Shown piece by piece: positions 11,304 to 38,477 of a stretch of 64,000 nucleotides of DNA (its first letter is position 1; every line of letters starts with the position of its first letter). Where the stretch lies: sequence record PQ362703.1. One strand, given 5' to 3'. Source of the stretch: Escherichia phage vB_EcoP_PW8. The position numbers and the translations under genes are program-made. The notes beneath the pieces were generated by a model that saw only the letters and a program-made list of their open reading frames with translations, was not told the DNA's origin and did no database searches.

Positions 11304-11633
11304 ATGAAAACTTTACTTAAAGGTGTTGCTGTAGCTGCACTGATAGCTTTGGTTCCAAATGCACAGGCAATTAAACCAGAACCAATTCTGGAAGGTGCTC
11401 AGGCTTACCTGGATGACACTCGTGATGCGTTCGGACAAGGATTCTTCATGGGCAGTATGATCTCTTACATCGAGAACACTAATAACTGTGTTCCTGAAGG
11501 TATTAAGTATTCAGTCATTCTGCCTAAGATTGCCAAAGTAGTTATTTACGACTCTGCAATCCTCAAGATGAAGAATACATCTCAAATTGTTGTGTACTCA
11601 GTACACAAGGCATACCCCTGCACCAAATCTTAA
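11304..11633 (+). CDS. secreted/periplasmic protein with signal peptide
   Basis: N-terminal MKTLLKGVAVAALIALVPNAQA signal-peptide-like segment. Confidence 0.55.
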   Translation: MKTLLKGVAVAALIALVPNAQAIKPEPILEGAQAYLDDTRDAFGQGFFMGSMISYIENTNNCVPEGIKYSVILPKIAKVVIYDSAILKMKNTSQIVVYSVHKAYPCTKS

Positions 11634-11667
11634 TCAGTAATTCCATTAGCTTTAGGAGAGTAAGTAA

Positions 11668-11874
11668 ATGGCAAGCATCGACTCCTTGACTGTATGTAAT
11701 TCACGTCAAGCTCGTAACTTTATTATCCGTGCCCTGAAAGCAGGTAACGTACCGTTCCTGACTTCATCACCAGGCATGGGTAAATCTGCAATTATTCGTT
11801 CTATTGCAGAAGAATTTGGTATGAAGCTGATAGACCATCGTCTGTCTACTTCTGCCCCGGAAGACCTTAACTAA
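11668..11874 (+). CDS. MoxR-like AAA+ ATPase, exon 1 (Walker A); ORF stop at 11872 lies inside a putative intron
   Basis: Walker A SSPGMGKS; ORF ends after 68 aa but the ATPase continues in ORF 12743..13588. Confidence 0.6.
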   Translation: MASIDSLTVCNSRQARNFIIRALKAGNVPFLTSSPGMGKSAIIRSIAEEFGMKLIDHRLSTSAPEDLN

Positions 11875-12745
11875 TAGGGCTTTGTGAGGGTGACCTCACA
11901 TCGAAAGCTATCTAAATGGGGAAACTCCTACTATTACAGGGAAACCATGATACACTCTGGTTTCCCAATAGAGGACAATCCCATGCTAAATATTAATGAA
12001 AGTTGGAAAGACATTGTTGGTTATGAAGGTTACTACGAAGTCTCTACGCATGGTCGTGTTAGAAATACCCATACAGGTATGATAAAGAACCAATGTGTAC
12101 AGACTAGCGGCAAGTATCTACAAGTTAGTTTGTGGAAAGGCAACAAAGAAAAAAGATGTTTAGTACATCGCTTAGTTGCTATAGCCTTCATTCCTAACCC
12201 CGAAGACAAGCCTCAAGTAAACCATTTAGACAAAAATGATAAGAACAACCATGTTCAAAATTTGGAATGGGTAACCATATCCGAGAATCATTTACATGCA
12301 TTTGCTAATGGTAGAAAAGGCTCCAAATCCCGACTAGGTGAAAAAACTAGTAAAGCCTCTCAGTATCGATATGTGTACTGGGATACCAAAAGAGCTGTTT
12401 GGAAAGCATCTATAAAGATAGACGGCAAAACAGTAAACATTGGTAGATTCAATACTGACCTAGAAGCAGCTTTAGCCGCTGATGAGGCAATTGATTCCTG
12501 GGGCTGGGATAGAATTAAAAACTTTCAATAATTAAATGCCTAACGACTATCGAAAACACGTAGTGATACGGAAGTGAGTAGAGTAGGGTGCAAGCCAATG
12601 GCACTCGAAAAGATAGCCACCCGGACAGGTAAAGCTGAGGGTGTTGATATAGTCTGGTCTGCGTAGTAATACGTAGCTGTATATGTCCAACTCGCATATA
12701 CGGGTAGAGCCTTGCAAACTCTACTGAACATAACGTAGTGGTTTG
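11869..12745 (+). mobile_element. putative group I intron carrying an HNH homing endonuclease ORF (boundaries approximate)
   Basis: Splits the ATPase between Walker A and Walker B; begins CTT|AACTAATAGGGC like the second intron; 3' part has stem-loops and blocks AACGACTATC, GAGTAGGG, GATATAGTCTGG shared with the intron at 33690. Confidence 0.55.
11983..12531 (+). CDS. intron-encoded HNH homing endonuclease
   Basis: WKDIVGYEGYYEVSTHGRV N-terminal module, HNH block QVNHLDKNDKNNHVQNLEWVT, C-terminal AP2-like block; track ORF 11884 trimmed to Met34 with AGAGGA RBS. Confidence 0.65.
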   Translation: MLNINESWKDIVGYEGYYEVSTHGRVRNTHTGMIKNQCVQTSGKYLQVSLWKGNKEKRCLVHRLVAIAFIPNPEDKPQVNHLDKNDKNNHVQNLEWVTISENHLHAFANGRKGSKSRLGEKTSKASQYRYVYWDTKRAVWKASIKIDGKTVNIGRFNTDLEAALAADEAIDSWGWDRIKNFQ

Positions 12746-13588
12746 CCATTCCGTAATGGTGACCGTGCAGAGTTTATTCCATTCGCTGACTTATTTCCCA
12801 TTGAGGGAGACGAAGTACCCGAAGGTTATAATGGCTGGCTCCTGTTCCTTGATGAGTTCAACTCAGCTAGGAAAGAAGTGGTAGCTGCTGCATACAAACT
12901 GATTCTCGACCGTATGACTGGTCAGAAAAAACTTCATCCCAATGTGATGATTGTTTGTGCTGGTAACAAAGCTACCGACCGTGCAATTGTTAACCCACTA
13001 GGTACTGCAATGCAGTCTCGTGTGGTTCACTTTGAAATGGAACTTAACTTCGACATCTTCGTTGAAGACGTAATGATTCCACAACAATGGGATGAACGTC
13101 TGGTTGCATTTCTACATGCTAACCCTGGCTATCTGCACGACTTCGACCCTGCTCATAAGAACAAAACATTCTGTTGTCCTCGTACCTGGGACTTTGTTAA
13201 CAAAGATCTCAAGAACCAACCAGAAGGTGCATTGCCTGACGAGGATTCCCTGTACTACAGTGGATTTGTTACACCAGGTAAGGCTGTAGAGTTTGTTCAG
13301 TTCACCCAGGTGTACAATCGTATCATTACGATCGAAAAGGTAGTCAAAGACCCATTGGGCTGTGCACTACCAGAAGATAACAACCTGTGCTGGGCTACCG
13401 TTAACCACTTGGCTAACAAAACTACTGAAGAGAACTTCGCTGATGTTCTTCAGTACATTGAACGCTTTAAAACGTTCACTCATAAGATTCTGTACTTCCG
13501 TACAGTAGGCAGAGCATTGCCAGAACTTCAGGCTACCCCTGAATGGCGTAAGGCTGCTGCTAATATCTCTCGTTACATTCACGGATAA
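12743..13588 (+). CDS. MoxR-like AAA+ ATPase, exon 2 (Walker B onward); true exon start about 12746
   Basis: Walker B LLFLDEFNSA; the track's TTG start is probably an artefact of the intron. Confidence 0.6.
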   Translation: MPFRNGDRAEFIPFADLFPIEGDEVPEGYNGWLLFLDEFNSARKEVVAAAYKLILDRMTGQKKLHPNVMIVCAGNKATDRAIVNPLGTAMQSRVVHFEMELNFDIFVEDVMIPQQWDERLVAFLHANPGYLHDFDPAHKNKTFCCPRTWDFVNKDLKNQPEGALPDEDSLYYSGFVTPGKAVEFVQFTQVYNRIITIEKVVKDPLGCALPEDNNLCWATVNHLANKTTEENFADVLQYIERFKTFTHKILYFRTVGRALPELQATPEWRKAAANISRYIHG

Positions 13589-13592
13589 AACA

Positions 13593-14768
13593 ATGAACCA
13601 ATTTCCTCAGCACACTCTTAGTGATGAACAACTCATGCGTGAGTATGACCGTATTCAAGCTCAGGCTTTCCTAGGACGCAGCGCAGCCTTCTTTGGTTCA
13701 TTACTATGTAGTCTTAAATTCTCATGGAAACGTGGGGATTGCCCCACTGCATGTACGGATGGGATAGAACTCCATTTCAATCCTGATTTCTTTATCTGGA
13801 TGTGTCCAGATGCAAGAGAAACAGTATTAATGCACGAACTATGGCATGTGGCATATCTACATGACATCCGTCGTGGAAGCCGTGACCCAGAAGTCTGGAA
13901 CCAGGCATGTGACCACTTCATTAACCTTCAGTTAGAAGAGGATGGTTATAAGTTCACTGGTATTGATGAAGGCATTTGCAAAGACCCCCAATATAAAGGA
14001 TGGGTCGAAGAAGACATCTATGATGACCTGATGAAGAACCCTCAGAAAAGGCAAAAGCCGTCAGGGGGTGCTGGAGCAGGTCTTGCTGGCGACATGAAAT
14101 CCCCCACTTCGGGGCAGTCCCAGGGTGCTGTCGTCAACAACGTAGTACGTGCAATGCAGAGCCAGAAGATGGCAGGTGGAACAATGCCTGGTAAGGGTGC
14201 TGGTCGTATGGAAGAGGTCATTACCCAATTCCTTAAACCAGTGGTTCCCTGGCAGGAAGTTCTGATGAATTTCTTTACCGACATTGATGACACTCATTAT
14301 ACGTGGGCCAGACCTAACCGTCGTTACACTGACATCTATCTACCTTCCCTGGAAGATGATGAAGGGCGATTACGACACTTAGCCTACTTTGAGGATGTAT
14401 CCGGTTCTATTAGTAGTGCTGACTCTCTGCGTTTTAACTCAGAGGTTGCCTACGTTAAGAGCCAGTTCAATCCTAAGAAGATGACCCTAATCACCTTCGA
14501 TGATGTTATCCAAGAAGAGATAGACATCACTGAAGAAGATACTTTTGAGGAGATTAAGATTACTGGTCGTGGTGGTACAAACCTGGAACCAGTACGTGAT
14601 TGGATTATTAAGAATAAGCCAACCGCTGCAATCATATTCTCTGATATGTATGTTCGTCCAATGGAAGAACTACCATTTGATATCCCAATCATCTGGTGTG
14701 TTCTGAATAATCCTAATGCTACCGTACCTTTTGGGGAGGTAGTTCATATCCCTAAAGGAATGAAATAA
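13593..14768 (+). CDS. VWA-domain protein with N-terminal HExxH metallopeptidase-like motif
   Basis: HELWH zincin-like motif; MIDAS-like DVSGSIS; immediately downstream of the MoxR-like ATPase, a known pairing. Confidence 0.65.
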   Translation: MNQFPQHTLSDEQLMREYDRIQAQAFLGRSAAFFGSLLCSLKFSWKRGDCPTACTDGIELHFNPDFFIWMCPDARETVLMHELWHVAYLHDIRRGSRDPEVWNQACDHFINLQLEEDGYKFTGIDEGICKDPQYKGWVEEDIYDDLMKNPQKRQKPSGGAGAGLAGDMKSPTSGQSQGAVVNNVVRAMQSQKMAGGTMPGKGAGRMEEVITQFLKPVVPWQEVLMNFFTDIDDTHYTWARPNRRYTDIYLPSLEDDEGRLRHLAYFEDVSGSISSADSLRFNSEVAYVKSQFNPKKMTLITFDDVIQEEIDITEEDTFEEIKITGRGGTNLEPVRDWIIKNKPTAAIIFSDMYVRPMEELPFDIPIIWCVLNNPNATVPFGEVVHIPKGMK

Positions 14769-33355: not shown

Positions 33356-33691
33356 ATGACCGAAGTAATTCCCAATGATATGAACACTCAGCTAATCCTG
33401 ATTGCAGGATTCTCAGCGAGTGGTAAATCAGCATCACTGCGTAACATCCGGAACCAGGAACGCTGGCTCTATCTGAATACTGAAGCAGGTAAACGTCTGC
33501 CTTTCCGTAACAAATTCAATACCTACAACATTGAAGACCCATACCAGATTTGGGAAGCATTTGATGTTGCATCTCCTGGTGGAGAAATGGCAGATGATGT
33601 TGATGGTATCATTATTGACTCAGCAACCTTTATGATGGACATGCTGGAATCTCAGTATGTATTACCCTCTGCAAACACGCAAAAGGCTTAA
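33356..33691 (+). CDS. Sak4-like (AAA_24-type) ATPase, exon 1; ORF stop lies inside a putative intron
   Basis: Walker A GFSASGKS and Walker B GIIIDSATF; reading frame resumes after the HEG in ORF 34461. Confidence 0.5.
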   Translation: MTEVIPNDMNTQLILIAGFSASGKSASLRNIRNQERWLYLNTEAGKRLPFRNKFNTYNIEDPYQIWEAFDVASPGGEMADDVDGIIIDSATFMMDMLESQYVLPSANTQKA

Positions 33692-34488
33692 CTACTAAGG
33701 CCCGTTAGTCAGTAATGATTAACGATAACTGATTGAATTCAGGGAAACCCCTAACGTAAAGACGAGGGCAATCCTGAGCCAAGACTTAATCTTTCTCCGG
33801 TTTTTATTAACGGAGTTACAAACATGAGTAAGAAAAGATTCGGTAATGAATTACATCCTCTGTATTACACATGGTTAACCATTAAACAGAGATGCGATAA
33901 CCCTAAGCACGCTAGTTACAAAAACTATGGGGCTAGGGGGATAACTAGAGCAGAAGAGTTCTCTGACTTCAAAGTGTTTGCTGCCTATCTAGAATCATTA
34001 GATGGTTACGCAGACAGGGAGAGACTGGGTCTTACTTTAGATAGAATAGATGGTTCACTTGGCTATGTGCCAGGAAATCTGAGATGGGCAACTAGAACAA
34101 CTCAGGCCATTAATTCCAGAAAAAGAAGAACCAGTAAAGCTACCTACTTAGGTATAGGTTTAAACACCACTAAGAAAAAATGGTCAGCAAGAATCTGCAA
34201 TGGTAATGAAAGAATCTTTGTAGGTAATTTTGATTCCGAGATTGAAGCTCTGGAAGCTAGAAATGCCTACATTATTGAGCATGGATTACCTCATGCCATT
34301 CAAAAGATTAAGTAAGGTGCAACGACTATCCAGTAATGGAGTAGGGCAGAAGCTAATGCTGCTCGAAGCGGTCAGCATCCTATCGTAATTAACGAGGATG
34401 AAGATATAGTCTGGACTGCATGGAAACATGCAGATGCAGGTAATGCTGCTGGGAGTGTAGTTGCGTACGCTCTTGAACGTATCGTGGG
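33690..34488 (+). mobile_element. putative group I intron carrying a homing-endonuclease-like ORF (boundaries approximate)
   Basis: Begins CTT|AACTACTAAGGCC; shares blocks AACGACTATC, GGAGTAGGG, GATATAGTCTGG and 3' end ...ATCGTG with the intron at 11869. Confidence 0.5.
33824..34315 (+). CDS. intron-encoded homing-endonuclease-like protein (degenerate HNH_3 plus AP2-like domain)
   Basis: RIDGSLGYVPGNLRWATRTTQ resembles HNH_3 core; C-terminal AP2-like block YLGIGLNTTKKKWSARI...FDSEIEALEARNAYI. Confidence 0.55.
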   Translation: MSKKRFGNELHPLYYTWLTIKQRCDNPKHASYKNYGARGITRAEEFSDFKVFAAYLESLDGYADRERLGLTLDRIDGSLGYVPGNLRWATRTTQAINSRKRRTSKATYLGIGLNTTKKKWSARICNGNERIFVGNFDSEIEALEARNAYIIEHGLPHAIQKIK

Positions 34489-34904
34489 GGGATTTTGCAC
34501 AGTTCTTTAAGATACTGCTGCAACAGAAAGTCGTTAAGTTTGGTAAGCCAGTAATCATTACTGCTCATGCTAAAGACGAACTGGATGAAGCTGCTGGTGT
34601 GATGAAAACATTCATCCCAGTGAAAGGTTCCCTTAAGAATAACGGACTTGAAGCCTACTTCTCTACAGTGGTTTACGCAGAACGTGTAGACATCAAAGAA
34701 CTGGAGAAGTACGGAAACAAGATGTTAGAAATTACGGAAGAAGAACGTGACTTAGGATATAAGCACGTATTCCAGACCCGTCCAACCAAGAAGTCTGTTG
34801 GTAAACGACTTCGTTCCCCTATGGGTATGTTCGATAAGTCCGAGACTTACATTGATAACGATGCCCAGAAACTATTAGACCATCTGGCTGAATACTACGC
34901 TTAA
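34461..34904 (+). CDS. Sak4-like ATPase, exon 2 (true exon start about 34485-34491)
   Basis: C-terminal half of a ~245-aa AAA_24-like protein; the track's TTG start is probably an artefact of the intron. Confidence 0.5.
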   Translation: MRTLLNVSWGDFAQFFKILLQQKVVKFGKPVIITAHAKDELDEAAGVMKTFIPVKGSLKNNGLEAYFSTVVYAERVDIKELEKYGNKMLEITEEERDLGYKHVFQTRPTKKSVGKRLRSPMGMFDKSETYIDNDAQKLLDHLAEYYA

Positions 34905-38322: not shown

Positions 38323-38398
38323 TACCCGGTAGGCTTAGTGGTAAAGCCCCACTAGTAAACCAGCTAGGACGCAGGTTCGAATCCTGTCCGGGTAACCA
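38323..38398 (+). tRNA. tRNA-like gene with encoded CCA; anticodon arm atypical
   Basis: Acceptor TACCCGG/CCGGGTA, D arm GGCT-TAGTGGTAA-AGCC, T arm GCAGG-TTCGAAT-CCTGT, 3' ACCA; anticodon region folds only as a 4-bp stem with an 8-nt loop. Confidence 0.45.
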
Positions 38399-38403
38399 TT
38401 TAT

Positions 38404-38477
38404 GCCCACTTAGCTTAGACGGGGAAAGCAACCGACTAATAATCGGAAGGTCACTGGTTCAAATCCAGTAGTGGGTA
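38404..38477 (+). tRNA. tRNA gene, apparent anticodon AAU (unusual; assignment uncertain)
   Basis: Acceptor GCCCACT/AGTGGGT, D arm GCTT-AGACGGGGA-AAGC, anticodon stem (A)CCGA/TCGG(A) with loop CTAATAA, T arm ACTGG-TTCAAAT-CCAGT. Confidence 0.5.

Follow-up and report, generated by a model that had tools for sequence, protein, structure and literature searches.

A predicted td-like group I intron with an HNH endonuclease gene in the ATPase gene of Escherichia phage vB_EcoP_PW8

Escherichia phage vB_EcoP_PW8 (PQ362703.1) belongs to the genus Gamaleyavirus (G7C/N4-like, Schitoviridae), and the stretch of 64,000 nucleotides (nt) analyzed here, called the window, carries an AAA+ ATPase gene that is split into a first exon, an 868-nt insertion, and a second exon. 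Comparison of the sequence with related phages and with known introns indicates, with a probability that we put at about 0.9, that the insertion (11868-12735, + strand) is a functional and mobile group I intron of the td type (subgroup IA2-like). An earlier note, made from the letters of the DNA alone, had proposed a group I intron with an HNH homing endonuclease gene at 11869-12745. The group I reading was borne out by the precise absence of the insertion from about 55 relatives, by the restoration of the protein upon excision, by homology to the td intron of phage T4, and by a ribozyme core with covariation. An insertion does lie where the note placed it, and the coordinates given there miss its 5′ end by 1 nt and its 3′ end by 10 nt.

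Insertion boundaries and the restored ATPase

The break in the ATPase frame after Walker A and its resumption in another frame before Walker B, both claimed in the earlier note, were read in the sequence. The product of the open reading frame (ORF) at 11668-11874 is 68 residues long, contains the Walker A motif SSPGMGKS, and finishes in ...APEDLN*, with 27 codons from SSPGMGKS to ...APEDL, followed by an asparagine codon and the stop TAA at 11872-11874. The ATPase frame reopens at 12734, in a different frame, and remains open to 13588; this part contains the Walker B motif LLFLDEFNSA. Window positions 11600-13600 matched 58 phage records of the genus Gamaleyavirus, and the insertion is precisely absent from about 55 genomes of related Gamaleyaviruses, St11Ph5 and ECBP1 among them, in which the ATPase gene is continuous (1053 nt, 350 amino acids (aa)). 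In the BLAST comparison, the window parts matched nt 1-201 and 204-1053 of the intronless St11Ph5 gene. Exon 1 (11668-11867, +) thus comprises codons 1-66 and two bases of Leu67, including the Walker A core GMGKS, and exon 2 (12736-13588, +), which was placed by BLAST against the intronless gene and by translation, supplies the third base of Leu67 and the codons from Ser68 to the stop, including the Walker B core LLFLDEF.

Across the junction, the sequence of the intronless genes is GAC CTT TCT GGC TTA CCA (insertion site GAAGACCTTTCTGGCTTACC), and the window reads GACCT|T AAC TAA ... ATAACG|T AGT GGT TTG CCA. Excision in silico gave the join GACCU|UAGUGG (predicted spliced junction GAAGACCU-UAGUGGUUUG) and a 350-aa protein that is the same as the St11Ph5 and ECBP1 proteins across the junction. 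A comparison of the joined protein with intronless ATPases of related phages had been suggested in the note. The spliced protein at the junction reads ...APEDL-SGL-PFRNGD... (APEDLSGLPFRNGD; junction peptide STSAPEDLSGLPFR), so that neither of the protein joins put forward earlier, APEDL|PFRNGD or ...GLPFRNGD, is right. The pair 11868/12735 is the sole pair of boundaries with a U at position -1, a terminal G, and a 350-aa protein of the intronless type. The 5′ splice site, CU|UAACUA, follows U11867, and no G other than G12735 brings the frame back. The 5′ junction had previously been drawn at CTT|AACTA, after a U; there is indeed a U at -1, and the site lies one base earlier. The suggestion that a G is usable at the 3′ end was correct, since the intron ends in G12735. 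Two other sets of boundaries were tried and rejected. With the 5′ splice site after U11868, the intron would end in U12736, and with the 3′ splice site after G12745, which corresponds to the APEDL|PFRNGD join, the protein would lose the SGL that is kept in all intronless homologues.

These boundaries also bear on the possibility that the ATPase is a pseudogene hit by a free-standing HNH gene. Free-standing HNH genes are common in these phages, and Shigella phage pSb-1 and several contigs have extra ones beside the DUF2201 gene, but both exons are in frame and intact, with 96-98% protein identity to the intronless homologues. The insertion is, moreover, exactly 868 nt long, at the same site and with precise U/G boundaries, in 7/7 full-length copies examined, and its non-coding flanks form a ribozyme. 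No exon frameshifts or stops were seen in the other carriers. We therefore consider a pseudogene very improbable.

Ribozyme structure and kinship with the T4 td intron

Group I introns that encode an HNH or a GIY-YIG endonuclease have been known from phage genes ever since T4 td. The window intron is collinear with T4 td over about 280 nt, both splice-site contexts included, and the two share CUAUCUAAAxGGGGAA, GACAAUCCCxUGCUAAAU, AAAUGCCUAACGACUAUC, ACUCGAAAxGAUAG, and GAUAUAGUCUGxUCUGC, as well as the 3′ end CUGAACAUAAxG|. All elements from P1 to P9.2 are collinear, including P7.1/P7.2, and there is little or no difference between the two in J3/4 (UAAA), J6/7, the P7 strands, or the 3′ end. 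Both introns start with U|UAA and a stop codon, have a P2 hairpin with a GUGA loop, and carry an endonuclease ORF looped out of P6a (I-TevI in td). The window intron differs from td in its host gene, which is an AAA+ ATPase gene instead of the thymidylate synthase gene, in its endonuclease, which is of the I-HmuI-like HNH type instead of GIY-YIG, in its expanded P5a and P7.1, and in the start of its ORF, which lies in P4/P6 and overlaps the ribozyme core, whereas the td ORF starts well inside the loop. Michel and Westhof are said to have defined subgroup IA2 in 1990 by the extra P7.1/P7.2 helices between P7 and P3′. In the window intron, P7.1 and P7.2 are present and covary, and they come with sequence homology to td, as in a member of this subgroup; such extra helices are typical of subgroup IA as a whole. 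Relatives of the 3′ core occur in about 300 phage records, and many of these lie within genes that are split, terminase genes for example. A blastn search with the 5′ non-coding part (11868-11990) against phages recovered pSb-1 only; kinship between the 5′ half and other introns became visible only when the structure guided the comparison.

The structure, from P1 to P9.2 and including the P3/P7 pseudoknot, was counted over a MAFFT alignment of six introns with the ORF removed, namely those of the window, pSb-1, and U1G, two of NAN33P5, and T4 td. All of the elements of the window intron lie on the + strand, and every local helix is the minimum-energy fold as well. In P1 (11860-11883), the exon end GAAG(A)CCU (11860-11867) pairs with the guide GGGCUUU (11877-11883), in agreement with the minimum-energy fold; U11867•G11877 stands at the 5′ splice site, where a U•G pair is found in 6/6 related introns, and the in-frame stop UAA (11872-11874) lies within the P1 loop. 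P2 is the hairpin GUGAGG-GUGA-CCUCAC (11884-11899), which the earlier note had picked out as a stem-loop. It is real and folds better than 200/200 shuffles (z -3.8), shows two-sided changes, and is kept in 6/6 introns by eye and in 5/6 in the automatic alignment, in which td is shifted. The 5′ strand of P3, GCUAUC (11907-11912), pairs with the 3′ strand GAUAGC (12612-12617) in 6/6 introns, and 3/6 of its pairs change on both sides. The 5′ strand of P4, UGGGG (11917-11921), pairs with UCCCA (11979-11983), also in 6/6 introns, and a C-G pair of td is U-A here. P5 (CCU(A)CUAUU / AAUAGAGG) and P5a (GGGAAACC/GGUUUCCC) together occupy 11927-11974. P5a is an expansion relative to td and corresponds to the second hairpin singled out in the note, GGGAAACC...GGTTTCCC (11939-11966), which likewise proved real and folded better than 200/200 shuffles, with z -5.7.

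The remaining elements enclose the ORF or follow it. The 5′ strands of P6 (GC, 11985-11986) and P6a (AUUAAUGAAAGUU, 11992-12004), which span 11985-12004, pair with 12538-12539 and 12520-12532, respectively; the P6 G-C pair is changed to A-U in NAN_C, and P6a shows two-sided changes in U1G_B and NAN_C. The P6a 3′ strand, AACUUUCAAUAAU, and the P6 3′ strand, GC, span 12520-12539 and overlap the HNH ORF in its final codons and stop. The P7 5′ strand, GACUAU (12545-12550), is the 'R' element in AACGACUAUC and is the same in all six related introns, including T4 td. P7.1 (CGUA-GUGA-UACG, 12559-12570) and P7.2 (GGGUGC/GCACUC, 12586-12606), which together occupy 12559-12606, fold as drawn and show two-sided changes across introns. 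The P8 hairpin, CACCC...GGGUG (12618-12643), is paired in 6/6 introns, with two-sided changes in 4/5 of its outer pairs. The P7 3′ strand, AUAGUC (12649-12654), is the 'S' element, agrees with the Rfam consensus GAUAUAGUCU, and shows no variation among the related introns. P9 (12659-12676), P9.1 (12679-12701), and P9.2 (12704-12724) fold as drawn (12659-12724), and P9 is paired in 6/6 introns with two-sided changes. The intron closes with the terminal G (omega-G) at 12735, in CUGAACAUAACG|, which aligns with the T4 td 3′ end CUGAACAUAAUG|.

Across the six introns, 89.5% of the pair cells were paired, compared with 36-43% when the 3′ partners were slid by 1-3 columns, and there were 37 two-sided pair changes, compared with 3-8 in the slid controls and with 0/500 shuffles reaching that number. 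P3, P4, P6, P7, P8, and P9 were each 100% paired, with compensatory changes in P3, P4, P6, and P8. The pairing of P5a, P9.1, and P9.2 was lower because MAFFT misaligned length-variable peripheral hairpins; P5a, P9.1, and P9.2 of U1G and P1, P2, and P7.2 of td were misaligned in this way, and their hairpins were visible by eye. The internal guide changes along with the exon end at each insertion site: guide and exon end are GGG and CCU in the window (site A), GGGG and UCCU at site B, GCGA and UCGU at site C, and GCCUGAG and CUUGGGU in T4 td.

A covariance-model search had been named in the earlier note as a check, and at the normal threshold it did not detect the intron. The Rfam search of the whole window at the gathering threshold reported two tRNAs only and not the intron. 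With E-value thresholds, group I family RF00028, for which the gathering threshold is 50 bits, was the top Rfam match (25.6 bits, E 3e-4, local search), and the match included GAUAUAGUCU. The introns of T4 td and nrdB scored 40.3 and 35.7 bits in the same tool, likewise under 50 bits, so td too is missed at that threshold. The Rfam miss therefore carries little weight, because the validated td and nrdB introns also fall below the threshold and because the model copes badly with an ORF of about 0.5 kb in P6a. If the likeness to a group I intron were due to chance or composition, with the hairpins as ordinary intergenic structure, a score below the gathering threshold would be expected, and GATATAGTC, allowing one mismatch, was not enriched in the window; however, the collinearity with T4 td and the covariation above all shuffles and slid controls effectively refute such an origin.

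Several points weigh against a functional intron. Splicing is predicted from sequence, and the Rfam score of 25.6 bits does lie below the gathering threshold. The six aligned sequences represent four independent introns, and the structure was drawn on one of them. P7 and J8/7 are invariant among the relatives, so that neither provides covariation evidence, and P10 is short, with 2 contiguous pairs, or 4 in a shifted register. There is also a precedent within the same genus: the insert with a homing endonuclease gene in g39 (DNA polymerase) of the G7C-like phage 10Gb was reported not to be spliced, with the polymerase made as two polypeptides (bioRxiv 10.1101/542787).

By analogy with g39, the insertion would be a non-splicing, intron-derived element, and the ATPase would consist of a 68-aa exon-1 product and a restarted C-terminal fragment. 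Exon 1 stops two codons into the insertion, TTG 12743 opens a 281-aa ORF, and gene callers annotate separate fragments, all of which would suit two polypeptides. This arrangement is nevertheless quite unlikely because the complete core is evidently under purifying selection, because TTG 12743 has no ribosome-binding site (no Shine-Dalgarno sequence precedes it; ACAUAACGUAGUGGUUUG), and because the break lies inside one AAA+ domain and parts its Walker A motif from its Walker B motif. A complete td-like core that shows invariant positions or compensatory changes only, across diverged hosts, would be needless without splicing. No Rfam match was reported for the g39 insert or for the insert in g16 (RNA polymerase 2 subunit A), the latter of which was found to be spliced by reverse transcription PCR in G7C-like phages (bioRxiv 10.1101/542787), whereas the window intron has such a match.

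As a td-type intron, the insertion would act as follows. The ATPase gene would be transcribed through the intron, and the RNA would fold to the P1-P9.2 ribozyme, in which the end of exon 1 (..GAAG(A)CCU) would pair with the guide GGGCUUU. U11867•G11877 would be set at the cleavage site, and a free guanosine held in P7 would attack after U11867; G12735 would then occupy the guanosine site, and the exons would join as GACCU-UAGUGG to yield a spliced mRNA for the normal 350-aa ATPase. On unspliced RNA, ribosomes would halt at UAA 11872-11874 in the P1 loop. The ORF in the P6a loop would supply a 182-aa I-HmuI-like HNH endonuclease (NUMOD4-HNH-AP2). In a mixed infection, this endonuclease would nick or cut intronless ATPase alleles near the insertion site, and repair off the intron-bearing genome would copy the intron together with the adjacent AGU codon (homing).

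The endonuclease gene and the spread of the intron

The HNH endonuclease ORF that the earlier note had described in the gap was upheld by Pfam matches and resembles I-HmuI. The gene (11983-12531, +; 182 aa) fills the P6a loop, and its product matched NUMOD4 (50.6 bits, 2.3e-13) and HNH_3 (33.4 bits, 3.5e-08), both over the cut-offs, with a weak AP2 match of the C-terminal part (29.9 bits versus a cut-off of 33.3 bits). PHROG 59, an HNH family, matched the endonuclease with E 2e-44, there were matches to PHROG HNH families in general, and residues 1-104 aligned with I-HmuI (PDB 1U3E) with E 2e-16. I-HmuI is the intron-encoded HNH nicking endonuclease of phage SPO1. The DNA polymerase introns of the Bacillus phages SPO1 and SP82 (I-HmuI/I-HmuII) resemble the window intron in that they, too, belong to group I and interrupt an essential gene of a phage, and the NUMOD4 and HNH parts encoded in the window align with I-HmuI. 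The window intron differs from them in the weak AP2 C-terminal part, in the host gene, and in the phylum of the host.

The start at 11983 is favoured by the calling of the 182-aa gene on 7/8 public contigs and by a homologous GTG start in U1G; the pSb-1 annotation uses an upstream start equivalent to ATG 11947. The AUG (11983-11985) falls partly in the 3′ strand of P4 and partly in the 5′ strand of P6, a Shine-Dalgarno-like GAGG (11971-11974) belongs to the 3′ strand of P5, and the first and last ORF codons form the two P6a strands (11992-12004 with 12520-12532). Since the ribosome-binding site and the AUG are inside the folded ribozyme, endonuclease translation would compete with ribozyme folding, and the structural model suggests that the two are probably mutually exclusive. 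A scan for sigma-70 promoters and terminators found no promoter-like site within the intron from which the HNH gene could be transcribed on its own. In all full-length copies examined, the HNH ORF is unbroken, with 17 synonymous versus 8 non-synonymous variant codons.

In the phage collection, the insertion is shared only with Shigella phage pSb-1, and a scan of IMG/VR for the 5′ junction likewise recovered the pSb-1 genome only. The exact 68-aa exon-1 product was found on at least 12 public contigs (metagenomes and Logan assemblies). Between the window and pSb-1, the intron is identical at 857/868 positions, compared with 90.5% identity in exon 2 and 85.6% upstream. Over the copies compared, identity to the window was 98.4-98.8% in the intron, 95.5-97.5% in exon 1, about 91% in exon 2, and 86% in the upstream genes (pSb-1 only). 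The 3′ half of the ribozyme is identical to that of pSb-1 at 204/204 positions and is invariant in all full-length copies. The step in identity at the intron edges points to recent lateral spread by homing. The first 60 nt of exon 2 contain one difference from pSb-1, versus about 10% further on, and this low divergence fits a short co-conversion tract. The intron site lies within a conserved ATPase segment (...S.s.p.DL.G..), which aligns with midasin too, and such a conserved position is typical of homing sites.

Four kinds of substitution were found among the copies in the 5′ half of the ribozyme, and 3/4 preserve pairing. G11884A with C11899U is a compensatory pair in P2 on contigs L009 and L015, A11887G gives a G•U pair in P2 of pSb-1, and C11964U and A11968G give wobbles; the fourth kind, G11939U, upsets a terminal pair only.

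The Ser68 codon after the 3′ splice site is AGU in every intron-bearing allele and UCU or UCA in all intronless alleles examined. Because a switch between AGU and UCU/UCA needs several simultaneous changes, AGU either came with the intron or is kept for pairing of UAGU with ACUA (11870-11873) as P10. The IMG/VR scan for an intronless allele with an AGT codon found none, and thus there is no evidence of precise intron loss.

Sibling introns, annotation of the locus, and neighbouring features

Three intron sites were found in the same ATPase gene. The site A intron, after ATPase nt 200, is that of the window and pSb-1; the site B intron, after nt 314 and within Walker B (LLFL|DEF), is present in U1G (L004 1818-2699) and NAN33P5; and the site C intron, after nt 648, is present in NAN33P5. 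NAN33P5 (introns at L005 565-1446 and 1781-2645) and metagenomic contig L013 carry two introns each in this gene. The introns at sites B and C resemble that at site A in their td-like core and in having a NUMOD4-HNH-AP2 endonuclease in P6a, and site B further shares the start UAACUAA, the GGG guide, the CCU|U target, and an identical P7.1-P7.2 region. They differ from site A in their endonucleases, which are 34-38% identical (about 38% between A and B), and in P8, P9.1, and P9.2. One U1G record annotates the HNH gene within the ATPase gene as 'Phage intron'.

With sibling td-like introns at three or more sites, we tentatively raise the idea, which we hold to be rather doubtful, that the Gamaleyavirus ATPase gene is a natural hotspot for intron retargeting. 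The introns might move by guide matching (reverse splicing), after which the endonuclease would be replaced or would diverge rapidly, and AGU might be selected for P10 pairing with ACUA 11870-11873 instead of being a mere product of co-conversion.

The inserts in g16 and g39 of G7C-like phages and the td intron of the N4-like Vibrio phage pVa5 (PMC5746245) resemble the window intron in that they belong to the same phage lineage and are inserts of about 800 nt with a homing endonuclease in core genes. The genes concerned differ from the ATPase gene, and the ATPase intron is unmentioned in both reports (bioRxiv 10.1101/542787 and PMC5746245). In the literature on pSb-1 or U1G introns and on Gamaleyavirus introns, no description of the site A ATPase intron was found. 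The kind of element is thus well known, and its insertion site in this ATPase gene is newly described. A conserved AAA+ (MoxR/midasin-like) ATPase joins the phage genes invaded by td-type introns, and introns of this type appear to be actively moving among the N4-like phages of E. coli and Shigella. The general understanding of group I intron function is unchanged. The introns at site A and at the other sites, together with a second intron in the window, form a compact natural set for the question of how group I introns and HNH endonucleases gain targets.

Public records, that of pSb-1 for example, show the locus as four small genes with no relation to one another, assigned to a hypothetical protein of 68 aa, an HNH endonuclease, a second hypothetical protein on the antisense strand, and an 'ATPase' that is truncated. 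Recognition of the intron turns such fragments back into one 350-aa ATPase. The antisense gene, gp64 (L001 2622-2798, -), is a 58-aa 'hypothetical protein' confined to the 3′ half of the ribozyme; the corresponding window ORFs on the antisense strand (12540-12749, -) are almost certainly not genes. In PHROGs, phrog_21479 ('unknown function', 68 residues) matched ATPase exon 1 (11668-11874) end to end, which indicates that this family is made of intron-truncated gene fragments.

The joined ATPase protein is N4 gp24-like (PHROG 1297) and matched Pfam AAA with 27.2 bits (cut-off 21.2), with Walker A GMGKS and Walker B LLFLDEF both present. AAA_5 (17.7 bits, cut-off 22) and bpMoxR (15.6 bits, cut-off 27) were both below their cut-offs, and the best PDB match was the midasin AAA domain (E 6e-4). 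The label 'MoxR-like' given to the ATPase in the note is reasonable as a description, and the protein is a putative member of that family. Directly 3′ of the ATPase gene lies a VWA-domain partner gene (13593-14768, +) with DUF2201_N metallopeptidase-like and DUF2201 VWA-like domains (Pfam E 3e-56 and 1e-33). A search of NCBIfam with the ATPase and this neighbour gave no match.

The second intron of the window is a 796-nt group I intron (33689-34484, +) that splits a gene for a Sak4-like ssDNA-annealing ATPase into exons 33356-33688 and 34485-34904. It matched RF00028 with 43.9 and 30.1 bits, starts with U|UAACUAC, ends in ...GUAUCG|, and contains AACGACUAUC and GAUAUAGUC. The joined exons correspond to the 753-nt gene of pSb-1, which is without this intron, and the intron is common to phages SP5M, PhAPEC7, and Bas96. 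Its ORF (33824-34315, +; 163 aa) is annotated as an HNH or 'restriction' endonuclease in related records and resembles the endonucleases of the ATPase introns only weakly, in their C-terminal part (25% over about 100 aa). The window also contains two adjacent tRNA genes (38323-38395 and 38404-38477, +), with Rfam tRNA scores of 40.7 and 64.8 bits.

The DUF2201 gene is itself a place where HNH genes are annotated. In pSb-1 (L001 3539-4000, gp66), in contig L009 (4429-4908), and in U1G (L004 3446-4620), the annotation shows either an additional HNH gene at or within this gene or a split of it; the window copy is intact. PHROGs labels the DUF2201 family, phrog_1314, as 'HNH endonuclease', which looks like an annotation error spread from HNH insertions.

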